Source of the DNA: Candidatus Zixiibacteriota bacterium
GTDB lineage: Bacteria > Zixibacteria > MSB-5A5 > UBA10806 > 4484-95
Direction of reading: 5' to 3'
Assembly: GCA_029932605.1 (NCBI GenBank)
Contig: JAOZPT010000061.1
Location: forward strand, 1-12,719
Length of the DNA stretch: 12,719 nt
The number at the start of each line of letters is the position of its first letter. Within the stretch, counting starts at the first letter, position 1. Both the position numbers and the translations under genes were made by a program. The notes beneath the pieces are model-generated. The model worked only from the letters and a program-made list of their open reading frames with translations, had not been told where the DNA came from and searched no databases. This document shows positions 4,056 through 11,170 of the stretch, piece by piece.

Positions 4056-6146
4056 ATGTTCAAAAAAAATAATATTAATAAGGTCTTAAAGATAAAACAA
4101 CCTACTGACCCAAAAGAGATAAAAGAAAAGAAATTACTGAAAATAGTTTTTATATATTTGACTATAATACTAGTGATACGATTTATATGTTCTTTTTTTC
4201 CCGAGGAACGATTATGGGGTCTAAATCATGCGGCTTTTATAAATGGAATGCCATTTCTTTATCTGGGGCTATTTTTAATAGGGATTTTTCTATATATAAG
4301 CGGTTATAATCATCCTGAAATAATCGATATAAACGGGTCAAATAAGTTTTGCAAATCCTTCAATAAAATCTTTCCCTATTTAATTATTTTGATTTCAGGT
4401 ATGTTCTTTTACTTCTTTTCAATCAAGGCTTATTTTCTTGGAGATGGTTATTTATTACTGTCTATTCTTTCGAACCAGGATACTATTGGAAAAAGCTTAG
4501 AAATTGGTGAATTTAGAGTTCATGAACTTTATCTAAAATTATTTGGGTTATTTACAATGCAAGGTGCCCGTCTAGCATATAAAAATATATCAATCCTATC
4601 CGGTTTAATTTTCATTGTGTCTTTGGCTTACTATGGAAGAAAAATCACAAGATCTTTCTTTTCTTATTGTGGTTTAATGTTTTTAACCTTAACGTCAGCG
4701 GGTACTATTCTCTTTTTCGGTTATGTTGAGAATTATTCAATAACCTCAGCTATGTTATATATTTTTTTCTTATCAGGAATATCAGCATTAAAAAATAATA
4801 AAAAAGCAATCATCCCGATAATTTCTTATCTGACTGCTTTATATCTTCATAAGATAGCTATTGTATATTTGCCAGCATTTTTGTTTTGTATAGTAACAAT
4901 GTTTTCTTCTAAGAAGGTTAATAAGTTACTATTATCGAAATATAAACACATTCTGACATTATTAGTGATATTATTTATTTCTTTTTATATAGTAGTAAAA
5001 ATATGTGCTCCACTATTTTGGCAAATATCATTTTTACACCCTTACAATTGGCGGTTCACGGTAGAAGGTTATACGTTATTTTCCTTAAAACATATTATTG
5101 ACTTTTTTAACTTGCTTGTTTTTTTAATACCTATTTCATTAATCGCTTTAATCATGGTATTACTTATGCCCTTTAGTAACAAAAAGAAAATTGATAAACC
5201 TACTTTGTTTGTTTTGATTGGATCGCAAGTTGGATTAATGGCAGTTTTTATATTTGAACCAAATCTGGGGATGGCTCGTGACTGGGATTTAATATCTGTT
5301 ATGTCAATTGGTGCTCTTGTAGGGGGTATTTATTATTGGATTGACAGATTCTATGATTATAAATTTTATAGATTAGCATCTGTTTTAATGTTACTAATTA
5401 ACTTGTCAATATATTTACCTTGGTTAACATTAGTTAATTCAAAAAAGGGAATATATGACTATAGTTTTTCTATTATGAAGCTTGACACCAAAAGATCAAG
5501 AACTGGAATATTTAACTTAATAGAATATAACAAGCGTAAAGGATATTATTTTGAAGTAAATAAACTTGAGGAATATAGAAGAAAAAAATATCCTGAGAGG
5601 GAATATTGGAAAGAAGGGGAAAAATATTATAAAGCGGGAGACTATAAAAAGGCTGAAGATTTATTTTTTAGAACGATTAAAGAAGCCCCTCGAAATTATA
5701 CTGGTTATGGATGGATAGGCACAATAAGATATAAACAAAAAAGATATAAAGAAGCACTTGAATATTTAAAAATTTCCAATGGACTTAATCCGGAAAATTA
5801 CATAACAGAATTCATGTTAGGAACAGCTTACAGTAATTTGGATAATGATAAACTTGCATTAAAATATTGGAAAAAAAGTATTAAACATAATATTTCTTTT
5901 TATGACCCTTATATAGCATTAGGAAATTACTTTTATGAAAAAGGTATTCCTGATTCTGCGAAATTCTATTTTACTCGTTTTCCTTTATCTAAATATCCTG
6001 TTGGAATCTATTATCGTCTTGGATTGGTTGAGTTACAATTGGGGGATACAGTAAAGGCAATGAATTATTTTAATACATATTTAGAAAAAGGCAGTGATAC
6101 AACTTTGATAAACCAAATAGAACATATTAAAGTTAAACTTAAATAA
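4056..6146 (+). CDS. Polytopic membrane protein with C-terminal TPR domain (possible GT-C glycosyltransferase)
   Basis: 696 aa with about 11-13 hydrophobic segments, acidic loop motifs FLGDGY, GYVENYS and ARDWDL, then five 33-34 aa TPR units. The TM+TPR architecture is seen directly; GT-C activity is inferred. Confidence 0.75.
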   Translation: MFKKNNINKVLKIKQPTDPKEIKEKKLLKIVFIYLTIILVIRFICSFFPEERLWGLNHAAFINGMPFLYLGLFLIGIFLYISGYNHPEIIDINGSNKFCKSFNKIFPYLIILISGMFFYFFSIKAYFLGDGYLLLSILSNQDTIGKSLEIGEFRVHELYLKLFGLFTMQGARLAYKNISILSGLIFIVSLAYYGRKITRSFFSYCGLMFLTLTSAGTILFFGYVENYSITSAMLYIFFLSGISALKNNKKAIIPIISYLTALYLHKIAIVYLPAFLFCIVTMFSSKKVNKLLLSKYKHILTLLVILFISFYIVVKICAPLFWQISFLHPYNWRFTVEGYTLFSLKHIIDFFNLLVFLIPISLIALIMVLLMPFSNKKKIDKPTLFVLIGSQVGLMAVFIFEPNLGMARDWDLISVMSIGALVGGIYYWIDRFYDYKFYRLASVLMLLINLSIYLPWLTLVNSKKGIYDYSFSIMKLDTKRSRTGIFNLIEYNKRKGYYFEVNKLEEYRRKKYPEREYWKEGEKYYKAGDYKKAEDLFFRTIKEAPRNYTGYGWIGTIRYKQKRYKEALEYLKISNGLNPENYITEFMLGTAYSNLDNDKLALKYWKKSIKHNISFYDPYIALGNYFYEKGIPDSAKFYFTRFPLSKYPVGIYYRLGLVELQLGDTVKAMNYFNTYLEKGSDTTLINQIEHIKVKLK
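5598..6101 (+). repeat. Five tandem tetratricopeptide repeats (protein-level repeat)
   Basis: Units REYWKEGEK...EAPRNY (34 aa), TGYGWIGTI...LNPENY (34), ITEFMLGTA...HNISFY (34), DPYIALGNY...SKYPV (33) and GIYYRLGLV...KGSDT (33), with the TPR consensus G and A positions. Confidence 0.85.
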
Positions 6147-6210
6147 ATATGCTTTTTTACCAAAATTTCTCACCCATTTATTCTTGATATCGAAAAGCAC
6201 ACCTGGTTTG

Positions 6211-6226
6211 AATTCTTTAAAGAATT
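6211..6226. promoter_or_regulatory. Perfect 16-bp palindrome upstream of the GG operon (candidate operator)
   Basis: AATTCTTTAAAGAATT is its own reverse complement. It is flanked by a second inverted pair, ATCGAAAA (6189-6196) and TTTTCGAT (6229-6236). Function is inferred. Confidence 0.35.
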
Positions 6227-6396
6227 AATTTTCGATTGCTTTAGGTAATTGATATTTGTATCTTTTTCGAGGTTTGTTGCCTTTAATCGGGATAATGGAT
6301 TCAAAATGGGATAGATCGATTGATTCTTGATACCGGTTGTGATTGCATTCTATTGATTGTTTTGGACACTTAACATTAATAAGGAATTTGATACAT

Positions 6397-7740
6397 TTGA
6401 CTACTGAAACCGAAAAACGTGATAAGCTCAGATCTGACGTTTTAAGGGTTATCCAGCAGGCGATAGAGTCAGTCAACCCTGAAAACGCTATTAGAAAACA
6501 CATGTCTATTGAAACCGAGGTGCTTCATATTGGTGATGAAAGAATTGACCTGAAGGATTATGTTAATATTAATGTTATAGGGGCAGGTAAGGCCTCACCG
6601 GCTATGGGCCTTGCTGTCGAGGAGGTCCTTGGTGAAAAACTAAAAGGTGGGGTTATCTGCACAAAGTATGGCTCTGGAGTTCGCCTTTCGAAGATGGAAG
6701 TTGTAGAAGCGAGTCATCCGATTCCGGATGAAAGGAGTGTATTGGGGGCTCAAAAAACCCTTGATAAAGTAAGATCATATGATTCAAATGACTTAGTTAT
6801 TTGCCTAATTTCAGGTGGTGCCTCTGCTATCTGGTGCCTTCCAGCTGGTAAAATTACACTTAAGGAGAAAGTGCAAGCTACCGAGGCTCTTCTTGCCAGC
6901 GGTGCTGATATCCATGAGATAAACACTGTAAGAAAGCATATATCGATGATTAAGGGGGGGCATCTGGCACGGGCTATTTATCCTAACAGGTTAATTAGCT
7001 TAGCCTTGTCTGATGTCGTTGGTGATAAATTCACCTCTATCGGCTCAGGTCCAACAACAGCCGATCCGACAACCTATCAACAAGCTATAAATGTGCTTAA
7101 TAAATACAGCTTGTTTTCAAGAATTCCACAATCAGTATTGGAGCATCTTAAGGCGGGTGTTAAATGCGAAATTCGGGAAACCCCCAAACCTGAAGATCCT
7201 ATATTCGAACGAAATATAGAGTGTATTATTGGCTCCAACAAATTAGCTCTTCGAACTGCTGAGGAGACTGCTCGCCATTTAGGGTATAATACTGCTATAT
7301 TATCATCGGAGTTGACCGGTGAGGCTAGATTTGTTGGCAAAAAACTTGCCGGTGAAATAAAGAAGATATATTTGGAAAAGAACCCGGTTGCCCCTCCGGC
7401 TATGCTGTTATGTGGTGGTGAGACAACGGTTACAGTTAAAGGGGATGGCAAAGGAGGTCGTAACCAGGAGCTGGTTTTATCTGCTGCTTTAGAATTAAAG
7501 GGTTTTAAAAGTATCCTTGTAGCGTCAATTGGTACAGATGGTATTGATGGTCCTACTGATGCAGCTGGTGCTTTTGCGGATGGTTCGACAGTTGGTCGTG
7601 GAGAGGAACTGGGGTTGGATGCTGTTGAGTATCTCGAGAGAAACAATAGCTATGAATACTTCAACCGTTTGGGCGAACTCATTTATATTGGGCCAACGGG
7701 CACGAATGTTATGGATATACAGGTACTTATCGCTATTTGA
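6397..7740 (+). CDS. gckA: Glycerate kinase, class II / MOFRL family (GckA/TtuD-like)
   Basis: Motifs GAGKA, HPIPD, LISGGASA, GADIHEINTVRKH, SDVVGD, IGSGPT, GGETTV, GKGGRNQE, GTDGIDG and TGTNVMD. Start moved from 6343 to the in-frame TTG at 6397 (447 aa) because SD-like AAGGA lies at 6381-6385; the exact start is uncertain. Confidence 0.92.
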   Translation: MTTETEKRDKLRSDVLRVIQQAIESVNPENAIRKHMSIETEVLHIGDERIDLKDYVNINVIGAGKASPAMGLAVEEVLGEKLKGGVICTKYGSGVRLSKMEVVEASHPIPDERSVLGAQKTLDKVRSYDSNDLVICLISGGASAIWCLPAGKITLKEKVQATEALLASGADIHEINTVRKHISMIKGGHLARAIYPNRLISLALSDVVGDKFTSIGSGPTTADPTTYQQAINVLNKYSLFSRIPQSVLEHLKAGVKCEIRETPKPEDPIFERNIECIIGSNKLALRTAEETARHLGYNTAILSSELTGEARFVGKKLAGEIKKIYLEKNPVAPPAMLLCGGETTVTVKGDGKGGRNQELVLSAALELKGFKSILVASIGTDGIDGPTDAAGAFADGSTVGRGEELGLDAVEYLERNNSYEYFNRLGELIYIGPTGTNVMDIQVLIAI

Positions 7741-7767
7741 TTATGAAGATTAACAGGGAGGGAAAAT

Positions 7768-8979
7768 ATGAGTGATTTCTTCCAGAGCGGTACGGTGGCA
7801 ACTTTTCACAGGCTGGGGGAATTTAGTCTGGAAAAGTTGGAAAAGGACCTGTTGGAATTTTCTTTCAAAAAAGGCATTACTCTTGTTTTGCCCTCACTTT
7901 ATTCGGAGATACAGGGGGAGGGTTTAAGAAAGATTGTTGAGGAGTTAAAAGGGGTGAGATATTTGCGTGAAATTGTGCTAACTCTGGGACCGGCATCAAA
8001 AAAACAATTTCTGGAAGTAAAAAAGTTTTTCTCTGGCTTACCACAGAGAATAAATGTCCTATGGAACGATGGTCCTCGTCTTCAGAGGCTCTATGATGAG
8101 CTAAAAGATAATGATCTTGACCCCGGGCCAGCTGGTAAAGGTCGTCAGGCATGGATGGCTTACGGTTATGTCCTGGCCGAAAGGGGAAGTCGGGTTATAG
8201 TACTTCATGACTGCGATATATTGACTTATTCAAGGGAACTATTGGGACGTTTAGTATATCCGGTTGCCTGCACGAAGCTTGATTATGAGTTTTGTAAGGG
8301 GTATTACAGCCGGGTGTCCGACAGGATGTATGGTCGTGTAACCAGGCTTTTCGTGACTCCCCTGATAAGAGCCCTTTTTAATGTTGTTGGTTATAAGGAG
8401 ATTCTTAGATATTTTGATAGTTTTAGGTATATTTTAGCGGGTGAATTTTCTATGACAACAGAGTTGGCGAGTATCAACCGTATCCCGGCTGATTGGGGAT
8501 TAGAGATAGGTGTATTAGCAGAGGTTTATCGTAATTGTTCGCCACAACGGATTTGTCAGGCTGAACTTTGTAAAAATTATGAACATAAACATCAAGAGTT
8601 ATCTGCCGATGACAAAATGAAAGGTTTGAATAAAATGACGATTGACATTGCTAAAACAATGTTCAGGATACTTGCCAGCGAGGGAGTAGTTTATTCATAT
8701 GGATTTTTCAATACTTTGAGGGCGGCTTATCAGAAAATTGCTGAGAATATGATAGGCAGATACCATGGTGATGCTATGATAAATGGTCTTGAATATGACC
8801 TTCACGAGGAGGAATACGCTCTTGAGGTTTTTGTTAAAGCCATACAAACTGCTGCTGAAATAATAATTGAAGACCCTATGGGGCCACCGCAAATCCCGAA
8901 TTGGTCCAGGGTTTTTTCAGCCATACCCGATTTTGACCATAAGTTATTGCAAGCAGTTAGGCAGGACAATAGTCCGTGA
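7768..8979 (+). CDS. gpgS: Glucosyl-3-phosphoglycerate synthase (about 400-aa Persephonella/cyanobacterial type)
   Basis: 403 aa with the MSDFFQ N-terminus, LVLPSLYSE, GKGR, the DxD motif HDCD, FCKGYY, YGRVTRL, GEF, DWGLEIGVL and YEHKHQ. SD GGAGG at 7757-7761. Lies in an operon with a GpgP-like phosphatase. Confidence 0.85.
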   Translation: MSDFFQSGTVATFHRLGEFSLEKLEKDLLEFSFKKGITLVLPSLYSEIQGEGLRKIVEELKGVRYLREIVLTLGPASKKQFLEVKKFFSGLPQRINVLWNDGPRLQRLYDELKDNDLDPGPAGKGRQAWMAYGYVLAERGSRVIVLHDCDILTYSRELLGRLVYPVACTKLDYEFCKGYYSRVSDRMYGRVTRLFVTPLIRALFNVVGYKEILRYFDSFRYILAGEFSMTTELASINRIPADWGLEIGVLAEVYRNCSPQRICQAELCKNYEHKHQELSADDKMKGLNKMTIDIAKTMFRILASEGVVYSYGFFNTLRAAYQKIAENMIGRYHGDAMINGLEYDLHEEEYALEVFVKAIQTAAEIIIEDPMGPPQIPNWSRVFSAIPDFDHKLLQAVRQDNSP

Positions 8980-8987
8980 GGTGAATA

Positions 8988-10265
8988 ATGAAGTATTATA
9001 CTTCCCTGCGACCATACGTTTCTAAAAGGGTTGAGCAGATTGAAAGCGCTGATATTTTAATTGGAATACCAAGCTACAACAGTGAAAGAACAATCGGGCA
9101 TGTCATTGAGATGGTGTCGGAGGGTTTGCACCGGCATTATAAAGACCTTCGTTCGGTGGTTATGTTAGCTGATGGCGGTTCTACCGATGACACCAGGGAT
9201 GTTATCGATAATACTTCAATAGGACCATGGCAGGAAAAACTTGTAACAATCTATCGGGGGCCGGCGGGCAAAGGAACAGCTCTTCGCTCAATATTCGAAG
9301 TGGCCACGAGGCTCTCGGTCAAAGCCTGCATGGTTGTTGACTCTGACCTTAGAAGCATTACTGGAGACTGGGTCAAACATTTGCTTGATCCGGTTATCGA
9401 GAAGGATTATGATTTTGTTGCTCCTATTTACTGTCGTTATAAGTATGACGGCACTATAACAAACAATGTAGTCTATTATCTTACGCGGGCTTTATATGGC
9501 AAAAGGATACGTCAGCCTATAGGTGGTGATTTCGCTTTTTCTAAAAGGTGTGCCAGTTTTTATATGAATCAGGATGTCTGGGAGACCGATATCGCCAAGT
9601 TTGGTGTTGATATATGGATAACCACTAGCGCCATTGTTAATAATTTCAAAATCTGCCAGTCTCATCTTGGAGTAAAAATCCATGATGCCAAAGATCCAGC
9701 AGTTCATCTTGCACCTATGTATCGTCAGGTGATTACTACGTTGTTTGCCTTAATGGAGGAGTATGAAAATTTCTGGAAGGAGATAAAATCCTCGGAACCA
9801 ACTGAGGTGTTCGGCGAGGATCCGGGTATCGAACCAGAGCCAGTAGCGGTTGATTTGAAAATGCTTGTGCGCAAGTTTAAGTTTGGGTATAAATATTTTG
9901 GTGTTCTCTGGAGAAAGATATTTTCTGAGGATGTTTTTAGAACTATCAGAAGGGCTTCCCGCCAGCGTTCAGAGAATTTATATATTAGTCCTGATGATTG
10001 GGCAAAGATACTATATGAGATTGCTGCCACGTTTCATAAGTGGAAGCATAACAGGTACAAGCTCGTCGAACTATCCACACCGCTTTATTATGGGAAGGTT
10101 GCGTCCTTTATAAACCACAGTCGTGACATGAATTCAGCGGAGGCAGAAAGACTCGTCGAGAGAAATGCACTGGTTTTTGAACATCTCAAACCCTTCCTTC
10201 TGGAGTTATGGGACAAACCTTTAGAAAATAACCACGAATTAGACCCTGAACTCGAAGATCTTTAA
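8988..10265 (+). CDS. ggs: Glucosylglycerate synthase-like GT-A glycosyltransferase (single-step Ggs family, related to mannosylglycerate synthase)
   Basis: 425 aa with ADILIGIPSYN, DGGSTDDT, GKGTA, the DxD motif VDSDLRSI, RYKYDGTITN, RQPIGGDFA, FGVDIWITT and KIHDAKD. SD GAGGTG overlaps the gpgS stop. Substrate specificity is inferred from family and context. Confidence 0.75.
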   Translation: MKYYTSLRPYVSKRVEQIESADILIGIPSYNSERTIGHVIEMVSEGLHRHYKDLRSVVMLADGGSTDDTRDVIDNTSIGPWQEKLVTIYRGPAGKGTALRSIFEVATRLSVKACMVVDSDLRSITGDWVKHLLDPVIEKDYDFVAPIYCRYKYDGTITNNVVYYLTRALYGKRIRQPIGGDFAFSKRCASFYMNQDVWETDIAKFGVDIWITTSAIVNNFKICQSHLGVKIHDAKDPAVHLAPMYRQVITTLFALMEEYENFWKEIKSSEPTEVFGEDPGIEPEPVAVDLKMLVRKFKFGYKYFGVLWRKIFSEDVFRTIRRASRQRSENLYISPDDWAKILYEIAATFHKWKHNRYKLVELSTPLYYGKVASFINHSRDMNSAEAERLVERNALVFEHLKPFLLELWDKPLENNHELDPELEDL

Positions 10266-10279
10266 TCCGTTTTCATCAG

Positions 10280-11104
10280 ATGTCTAACAACTTAGTAATA
10301 TTCACCGACCTTGACGGCACACTGCTTGATAAACATACATATCAACCCGGTGTCTCACTTGCAAGTCTTGAGAGATGCCGTCGCCTGAAAATACCGGTGA
10401 TCTTTGTATCTGGGAAAAGCAGGGCTGAGATGGAACTGGTTAGAAAGGAGTTGAATAACGACAGTCCTTTTATATCCGAAAATGGGGGTGGATTGTATTT
10501 ACCGGTGAAAGATTTTCAAGCTCCCGAGGGCGCTTCGAGGATCGATTCATACTGGTGTTTGTGTTATGATGAAAATATTGGGGATGTTCGCAATGTGCTC
10601 TTAAAATCAGCGACAGAGGCAGGTATTGAGGTTAAAACCTTTGACCAGATAACAGCCTTAGAAGTCTCCGAGTTAACCGGTCTAAATCTTGAGCATTCAA
10701 AGCTGGCAAAAATAAGAGAGTTTGACGAGGCTTTTGTAATTATCGATGAGACACCGGAAAAACTAAAAACTTTAAGAGAAAAAATCGCAAGTCATGGATA
10801 TAGATATACGCATGGGGGCCATTTTCATCATATTATGGGAAATTTTGATAAAGGCTATAGGGTGGACCAGGTTAAAAAGATTTATTTAAGTATGAATCCT
10901 ACAACCAAGTTCGCCGCCCTGGGAGATGCCTGTAACGACCTGCCGATGTTAAAAATTGTGGATTATCCATTCCTTGTCCGAAGACCGGATGATACTTATG
11001 ATGAGAGCGTTGTTTTTGAGAGCTTGAATATAACCGCCGGTATCGGACCTGCTGGCTTTGCCGAGGCTGTGGATTGGTTGATAAAAAAATTAGCCTTGGA
11101 GTGA
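10280..11104 (+). CDS. gpgP: Glucosyl-/mannosyl-3-phosphoglycerate phosphatase (HAD IIB, MpgP/YedP family)
   Basis: 274 aa with HAD motif I FTDLDGTLLD, motif II SGK, PFISENGG, REFDE, GGHFHH, motif III DKG and motif IV GDACND. Begins 14 nt after the ggs stop. Confidence 0.88.
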   Translation: MSNNLVIFTDLDGTLLDKHTYQPGVSLASLERCRRLKIPVIFVSGKSRAEMELVRKELNNDSPFISENGGGLYLPVKDFQAPEGASRIDSYWCLCYDENIGDVRNVLLKSATEAGIEVKTFDQITALEVSELTGLNLEHSKLAKIREFDEAFVIIDETPEKLKTLREKIASHGYRYTHGGHFHHIMGNFDKGYRVDQVKKIYLSMNPTTKFAALGDACNDLPMLKIVDYPFLVRRPDDTYDESVVFESLNITAGIGPAGFAEAVDWLIKKLALE

Positions 11105-11133: not shown

Positions 11134-11170
11134 AGCTTGGGAAATAATAATTACCCAGGCTATTTTTTTT
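11134..11170 (+). terminator. Rho-independent terminator of the GG operon
   Basis: Stem AGCTTGGG (11134-11141) pairs with CCCAGGCT (11154-11161) with one G-U pair, followed by ATTTTTTTT, about 30 nt after the gpgP stop. Confidence 0.75.

Follow-up and report, generated by a model that had tools for sequence, protein, structure and literature searches.

In Persephonella marina, glucosylglycerate (GG) is made by a dual synthesis pathway, as PMC3736172 states; the coexistence of both routes in that organism had been noted in an earlier note on the DNA analysed here, made from its letters alone, and is borne out by that source. The GG locus of P. marina, to which the characterised GpgS, GpgP and Ggs belong, has these three genes and a glycerate kinase gene on one strand with short gaps, in the order gpgP-kinase-ggs-gpgS. 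A glycerate kinase beside GG genes is moreover a known association, because GG phosphorylase genes are described in PMC7178133 as frequently accompanied by genes for glycerate kinase, GpgS or GpgP. Here we analyse a 12,719-nt stretch of DNA, referred to below as the window, which is the whole of contig JAOZPT010000061.1 from a Candidatus Zixiibacteriota bacterium (assembly GCA_029932605.1; 2.53 Mb in 101 contigs, 99.96% complete). Like the P. marina locus, positions 6397-11104 of the window hold these four families on one strand and with short gaps, but in the order kinase-gpgS-ggs-gpgP. Judged by homology, the cluster is a further member of the Persephonella-type GG gene set, to which it adds a phylum.

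A Persephonella-type gene cluster in the window

The four genes lie on the plus strand, separated by spacers of 27, 8 and 14 nt. Their order and tight spacing had been read in this way in the earlier note and are confirmed by the coordinates of the open reading frames (ORFs), and family profiles and homology bear out all four of the gene identities that it proposed. The features of the operon are as follows.

6147..6396, plus strand: likely promoter region; a 250-nt AT-rich gap between the stop of a TPR gene (6146) and the kinase gene
6397..7740, plus strand: MOFRL/DUF4147 glycerate kinase (class II, predicted glycerate 2-kinase), 447 aa, from Pfam and homology to Protein Data Bank (PDB) entries
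7768..8979, plus strand: GpgS, glucosyl-3-phosphoglycerate synthase of the Methanococcoides/Persephonella type, 403 aa, from NF040724 and homology to Persephonella
8988..10265, plus strand: Ggs, one-step glucosylglycerate synthase, 425 aa, from homology to P. marina Ggs and a structural model resembling mannosylglycerate synthase (MGS)
10280..11104, plus strand: GpgP, glucosyl-3-phosphoglycerate phosphatase (MPGP family, HAD-IIB), 274 aa, from TIGR01486
11134..11171, plus strand: likely intrinsic terminator, a hairpin followed by a U-run, from folding

The third gene encodes a 425-aa GT-A protein whose homology to characterised P. marina Ggs spans the full length, with 47% identity (193/410), 68% positives and E 3e-145. 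The reference protein, WP_012675407.1 (UniRef100_C0QRQ1), is named by NCBI as 'glucosylglycerate synthase Ggs [Persephonella]' and was reached by a search started with an Aquificota homologue; it matches Pfam MGS_GT. The best PDB matches of the AlphaFold model of the window's protein (pLDDT 88.2) are to MGS of Rhodothermus marinus (TM 0.66-0.79 over about 400 columns), followed by structures of GpgS and MpgS. The protein has the GT-A fold, an MGS-like helical C-terminal domain and a DXD motif, D118-x-D120, that is invariant in 17 homologues. The likeness to R. marinus MGS (GT78; PDB 2bo4, 2y4j) extends over nearly the whole chain, GT-A and helical C-terminal domain alike, and to the reaction, since MGS also carries out a one-step transfer onto free D-glycerate alongside a two-step phosphorylated route; it differs from the window's protein in sequence (12-15% identity) and in using mannose, not glucose, as the donor sugar. 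From this homology the 8988-10265 protein is Ggs (EC 2.4.1.268), with the predicted activity NDP-glucose + D-glycerate -> GG. A GAGGTG motif, Shine-Dalgarno-like with respect to ggs, overlaps the gpgS stop codon.

MggA (the MGPG synthase of the mannosylglucosylglycerate pathway) was also considered for this second transferase and was ruled out, because of the 47% identity to Ggs and because MggA belongs to GT4 (PMC3736172). Genomes of four families of the phylum (f8, f13, f14 and f16) have a second Ggs paralogue, which shares 42-46% identity with that of the window; in eight loci (L114-L121, from genomes G207, G191, G233, G239, G158, G152, G286 and G132) it stands alone, without GG genes nearby.

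The two genes of the phosphorylated route flank ggs. GpgS matches NF040724 over positions 5-401 of its 403 aa with 365 bits, which is under the equivalog cut-off of 700 bits of a model that is specific to methanogens, and over 402 aa it is 49% identical to the protein at the gpgS position of Persephonella locus L082. Its ATG is preceded at 7 nt by a Shine-Dalgarno-like GGAGG. The predicted GpgP passes the cut-off of TIGR01486, the MPGP family model (192.4 versus 164.75 bits), matches the MPGP of Thermus thermophilus (PDB 3ztw) with 129 bits, and is 35% identical to the protein at the gpgP position of L082.

The longest ORF of the kinase gene opens at TTG 6343, and the alternative TTG 6397, which has AAGGA 12 nt 5' of it, gives a protein of 447 aa, the length of the two nearest homologues (L002, L092). 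The product is placed in its family by the domains PF13660 (DUF4147; E 2e-81) and PF05161 (MOFRL; E 2e-39) and by homology to solved members, PDB 1x3l (PH0495; 331 bits) and 2b8n (TM1585; 301 bits). Against the NCBIfam glycerate 2-kinase equivalogs NF041176 and NF040791, which are archaeal models, it scores 253 and 228 bits, under the respective cut-offs of 550 and 670. Its predicted product is 2-phosphoglycerate or 3-phosphoglycerate. The gene is the only MOFRL kinase in the window's genome, and its product is 44% identical to the kinase of L082.

The same gene set in other genomes

The genes gpgP, MOFRL kinase, ggs and gpgS occur together in 8/8 of the Hydrogenothermaceae loci examined. One of these loci is in genome G007, whose Ggs is 100% identical to the named P. 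marina protein; it too holds all four genes, so that the kinase belongs to the very locus that yielded the characterised GpgS, GpgP and Ggs. The earlier note had taken the kinase to be what sets the window's cluster apart; this premise is wrong, because the same four genes adjoin one another in all eight of these loci. Clusters of the GG phosphorylase GGaP (GH13_18; E. coli YcjM) also have a glycerate kinase adjoining GG genes, as in the window, but differ in that a GGaP-like gene was not found in the window's genome or in the carriers of its phylum that were searched.

Within the window's phylum, 11 of the 20 loci that were fetched have the order GpgS-kinase-Ggs-(channel-like)-GpgP, and the remaining nine have no kinase within the cluster; clusters of family f7 consist of GpgS-Ggs without an adjoining GpgP. 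The kinase lies within 150 nt of Ggs in 8/8 Aquificota loci and 6/20 loci of the phylum, some of the stop and start codons overlapping or abutting. The channel-like gene, of about 235 aa and with mechanosensitive-channel transmembrane helices (PF05552), stands between ggs and gpgP in most of those 11 loci. Examples from other families of the phylum are L099:1592-2311, L103:6934-7641 and L108:6944-7648, and the gene is absent from the window's operon. In one genus (L100:7840-11318, L101:8880-10625, L110:3171-8507), the kinase and ggs are separated by opposite-strand insertions of genes whose large products have type IX secretion C-terminal sorting domains.

A wide sample of 80 loci, drawn from the 587 or more species with a gene for a Ggs relative, has the kinase near Ggs in seven cases, GpgS within 6 kb in 26 and GpgP within 6 kb in 19. 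GlgA lies no more than two genes from Ggs in 11/80 loci, and the other recurrent neighbours are GlgC, branching enzyme, 4-alpha-glucanotransferase, a GalT-family gene, MscS, USP, pyruvate kinase and PEP carboxykinase. The idea that GlgA but not GlgC near Ggs hints at the direction of the reaction was dropped, since GlgC-type genes are also found nearby (cluster c22).

Co-distribution of Ggs, GpgS and the kinase

In the phylum, 30 of 201 sampled genomes, spread across seven families, carry Ggs and 29 carry GpgS, the two sets being identical bar one 82%-complete genome. The MOFRL kinase is found in 31 genomes, made up of 25 of the 30 Ggs carriers and 6 of the 171 non-carriers. The remaining five carriers, three of which are 100% complete, have no class-I glycerate kinase either. 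All these counts overstate their statistical weight, because related genomes are not independent.

GpgS-like genes were found in 49 of 56 Ggs carriers from outside the phylum. Of the seven without one, five have a USP-GT2 fusion adjoining Ggs. Among 50 Ggs-carrying genomes taken from the sampled Ggs-relative loci (two of the 50 come from the window's phylum), 41 encode a MOFRL kinase, and in some of these (e.g. G056, G060) it adjoins a GpgS-like gene at a distance from Ggs. Pairwise identities of GpgS and Ggs from 52 loci are correlated (Mantel r = 0.59; 0/999 permutations as high), which is compatible with joint inheritance but also with shared phylogeny, and is not used as evidence here.

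Known GG-degrading enzymes

The window holds no gene for a GG phosphorylase or hydrolase, and profile searches of its genome found no GH13_18, GH63, GH65, GH31, GH15 or GDE-type gene. No protein of the genome matches PF22422, PF03200, PF03632, PF01055, PF00723 or PF06202, and PF00128 has one weak match, in a 1159-aa protein. In tblastn, E. coli YcjM and the GH63-like protein of Persephonella found nothing in the genome under E 0.5. The earlier note had proposed that the rest of the genome be searched for GH13_18 and GH63 genes, and by both methods there are none. The 29 other Ggs carriers of the phylum give the same picture: 0/29 have a PF22422 (GH63-like) match and 0/29 a GGaP-like gene, the sole YcjM match being to a 1170-aa protein that is 30% identical. 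Since these relatives lack GH63-like and GGaP-like genes as well, the absence from the window's genome is not an assembly gap.

The 1159-aa protein (L113:855-4334, on contig C82) is the only protein of the window's genome with a GH13 domain, by a weak alpha-amylase match of 42 bits, and has a 1170-aa counterpart in G096.

Outside the phylum, the picture differs. The cut-off of PF22422 is passed in 23 of the 50 Ggs carriers taken from the sampled Ggs-relative loci, 14 of them at 149 bits or more, and a full-length protein 41-43% identical to YcjM occurs in 11/50; taken together, 24/50 have a candidate GG hydrolase or phosphorylase (PF22422 or YcjM-like), where GH63-type genes are counted as candidate hydrolases by family match. 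Among genomes in which the kinase adjoins Ggs, a GGaP-like gene is present in G002 and G079, a GH63-like gene in G003, and neither in G004, G005, G046 and G083. The genomes of the Persephonella family all have a strong GH63-type gene elsewhere (5/5; 304-324 bits), in contrast to the window's genome and its 29 relatives; none of the five has a YcjM match, and PF00128 gives a weak match in one only, in a 634-aa frame. The picture inside the phylum (0/29) thus favours the earlier note, but the mutual exclusion of ggs and GG phosphorylase or hydrolase genes that it had considered does not hold: outside the phylum, Ggs-kinase clusters share genomes with GH63-type or GGaP-like genes, which is one of the findings that the note had named as refuting its model.

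The genome also carries genes of ADP-glucose metabolism away from the GG cluster. On contig C39 (L112:356-4246), an alt-GlmU-like nucleotidyltransferase, a GalT-family gene (TIGR00209, 130.6 bits versus a cut-off of 102.1) and an ADP-glucose-type GlgA stand in a row, the second of these being 51% identical to a GalT-family gene near Ggs and GlgA in L063. No GlgC of the genome passes its cut-off, the best TIGR02091 match reaching 135 of the 424.9 bits needed. The row on C39 may be an alternative way of making or draining ADP-glucose.

Possible roles of Ggs and the kinase

In the conventional assignment, which we regard as the most likely one, with an about even chance, GG is produced by GpgS and GpgP, Ggs acts as an additional, one-step synthase, free glycerate is salvaged by the kinase, and GG is lost by release, dilution or an unrecognised enzyme. 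GpgS and GpgP would convert NDP-glucose and 3-phosphoglycerate to GG by a committed route, irreversible through the phosphatase, and Ggs would make GG in a single step from NDP-glucose and free D-glycerate. The MOFRL-family kinase would likely return free glycerate to glycolysis as 2-phosphoglycerate, and both it and Ggs would then draw on the free-glycerate pool. For release of GG, the channel-like gene that sister clusters have between ggs and gpgP is a possible candidate. The product would be GG, probably used as a compatible solute by this marine-sediment and vent organism. In favour of this assignment, the structurally similar one-step MGS of R. marinus is regarded as synthetic in vivo, and the neighbours of Ggs elsewhere are ADP-glucose, stress and osmotic genes.

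Several observations weigh against the conventional assignment. The source of free glycerate is not evident, and the near confinement of the kinase to carriers of the GG genes (25/30 versus 6/171) suggests that glycerate derives from the GG genes themselves, at the same time as no known GG hydrolase or phosphorylase is found in the window's genome or the 29 other carriers searched. A co-transcribed kinase would deplete the acceptor that Ggs needs. The equilibrium constant of ADP-glucose + glycerate = GG + ADP lies at about 1e2 to 1e4 from standard free energies, and net synthesis at hundreds of mM GG would then need millimolar glycerate. Finally, Ggs does not occur without GpgS (30 versus 29 genomes in the phylum; 49/56 elsewhere), which is odd for a redundant second synthase, and the comparative data thus make it less likely that Ggs is merely redundant.

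The model of the earlier note we regard as a tentative possibility: GpgS and GpgP would make GG, and Ggs would run mainly in reverse in the cell (GG + ADP -> ADP-glucose + glycerate), pulled by the co-transcribed kinase, which would convert glycerate to 2-phosphoglycerate, so that the energy of the glucosyl bond would be kept and GG phosphorylase and hydrolase replaced in this lineage. Stated for the phylum, where it is equally doubtful, Ggs would mobilise GG with the kinase pulling, and ADP-glucose would pass to glycogen through GlgA or to glucose 1-phosphate through the GalT-family enzyme. The lack of all the glycosidase families searched in the window's genome and of GH63-like and GGaP-like genes in the 29 other carriers speaks for this model, as do the co-distribution of Ggs with GpgS, the distribution of the kinase over carriers and non-carriers, the frequent direct adjacency of kinase and Ggs (8/8 Aquificota and 6/20 phylum loci), and the presence in the genome of an ADP-glucose-type GlgA with an adjoining GalT-family gene, both of them possible outlets for ADP-glucose. 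It is also physically reasonable: from standard free energies, GG + ATP = ADP-glucose + 2-phosphoglycerate would be near equilibrium, and breakdown would be favoured at osmolyte-level GG and low glycerate, because high GG together with kinase-lowered glycerate would drive the reaction to ADP-glucose. Sucrose synthase with SPS/SPP, and TreT with OtsA/OtsB, likewise set a reversible one-step NDP-sugar enzyme, able to act in breakdown, beside an irreversible phosphorylated two-step route; these enzymes are, however, unrelated in sequence to Ggs, for which reverse activity is not on record in the portions of the literature seen. In those portions, covering glucosylglycerate synthase and GG together with glycerate kinase, we found no proposal of reverse Ggs. 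A reversed kinase that feeds glycerate to Ggs was also considered, and was rejected on free energies only, 2-phosphoglycerate being a poor phosphoryl donor.

Set against reverse Ggs is its free co-occurrence elsewhere with GH63-type or GGaP-like genes (all five Persephonella-family genomes, G002, G079 and G003; 24/50 overall), together with the five carriers, three of them 100% complete, in which both MOFRL and class-I glycerate kinases are missing. In the wide sample only 7/80 loci have the kinase near Ggs, and it is also found beside GpgS-like genes away from Ggs (G056, G060), and the channel-like gene of the sister clusters offers release as an exit route for GG. Synthesis, reportedly described by Fernandes et al. 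2007, is the only activity known to be on record for the Ggs family.

Two further explanations were considered. The one that we consider improbable is a clean-up function, in which a highly expressed MPGP-family phosphatase would also dephosphorylate some 3- or 2-phosphoglycerate, and Ggs and the kinase would scavenge the glycerate so formed, to GG and to 2-phosphoglycerate respectively. Such a function would supply glycerate without any GG-cleaving enzyme and would account for Ggs and the kinase accompanying GpgS and GpgP and never standing alone in the phylum, but f7-family clusters have GpgS-Ggs without an adjoining GpgP, and the reportedly millimolar Km of P. marina Ggs for glycerate is a poor fit to a scavenger. 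The other, very improbable in our view, is that the end product is a larger GG-based glycoside (mannosylglucosylglycerate-like, or a polysaccharide primer) in which the second transferase extends the product of the first. Pathways to mannosylglucosylglycerate (MGG) do combine GpgS with a further transferase, as described in PMC3736172, and in L055, L070, L072 and L077 Ggs adjoins a USP-GT2 gene and a histidine phosphatase (His_Phos_1), with a GT4 gene in three of the four; these four loci look like a different gene set, possibly an MGG-like one. The further transferase MggA is, however, a GT4 enzyme according to the same source, no GT4 gene is present in the window, and the second transferase there is the GT-A protein that is 47% identical to Ggs.

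Signals and surroundings of the operon

Promoter-like matches in the gap upstream of the kinase (6147..6396) are matches to the consensus only. At the operon end, a stem at 11134-11161 (-13.1 kcal/mol) is followed by UAUUUUUUUU, and an intrinsic terminator is plausible there, not proven. The terminator claimed in the earlier note thus finds support in the hairpin and U-run seen by folding, but not in the folding z-score of the 76-nt stretch, which is only -1.08, nor in a consensus terminator scan, which called nothing at the operon end because the hairpin loop exceeds the 8-nt limit of the scan. The G+C of the four operon genes, 0.416-0.432, is typical of the genome (0.409). Near-identical DNA was found only in hydrothermal-vent and marine-sediment metagenomes, with six runs containing at least half of the sampled words; among the runs listed in this read-archive word search, none was an RNA dataset with the operon DNA, of the kind that would bear on co-transcription.

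Directly upstream of the operon, a TPR-repeat gene (4056-6146, 696 aa) has a G+C of 0.279, under the first percentile (0.347) of the 2-kb windows of the genome, the mean of which is 0.409; the gene may be foreign or just unusual in base composition. In the locus of the closest relative, an IS110-family transposase (L002:10389-11471) lies between gpgP and an M32 carboxypeptidase gene, at a place where the window has a plain 191-nt spacer.

Biological significance

The cluster itself represents a new phylum for a known GG gene set. The comparative result is that, across this phylum, the one-step and two-step routes of GG synthesis are never separated, the kinase stands alongside them, and no known GG-degrading enzyme is present. 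This raises a testable question about the role of the one-step enzyme and the kinase, and about the turnover of GG where both GGaP and the GG hydrolase GgH are missing. If Ggs does run in reverse in the cell, GG would be a further solute, beside sucrose and trehalose, with reversible NDP-sugar salvage, and these bacteria would have a sucrose-synthase-like, energy-conserving form of osmolyte recycling in place of GG phosphorylase and GG hydrolase.

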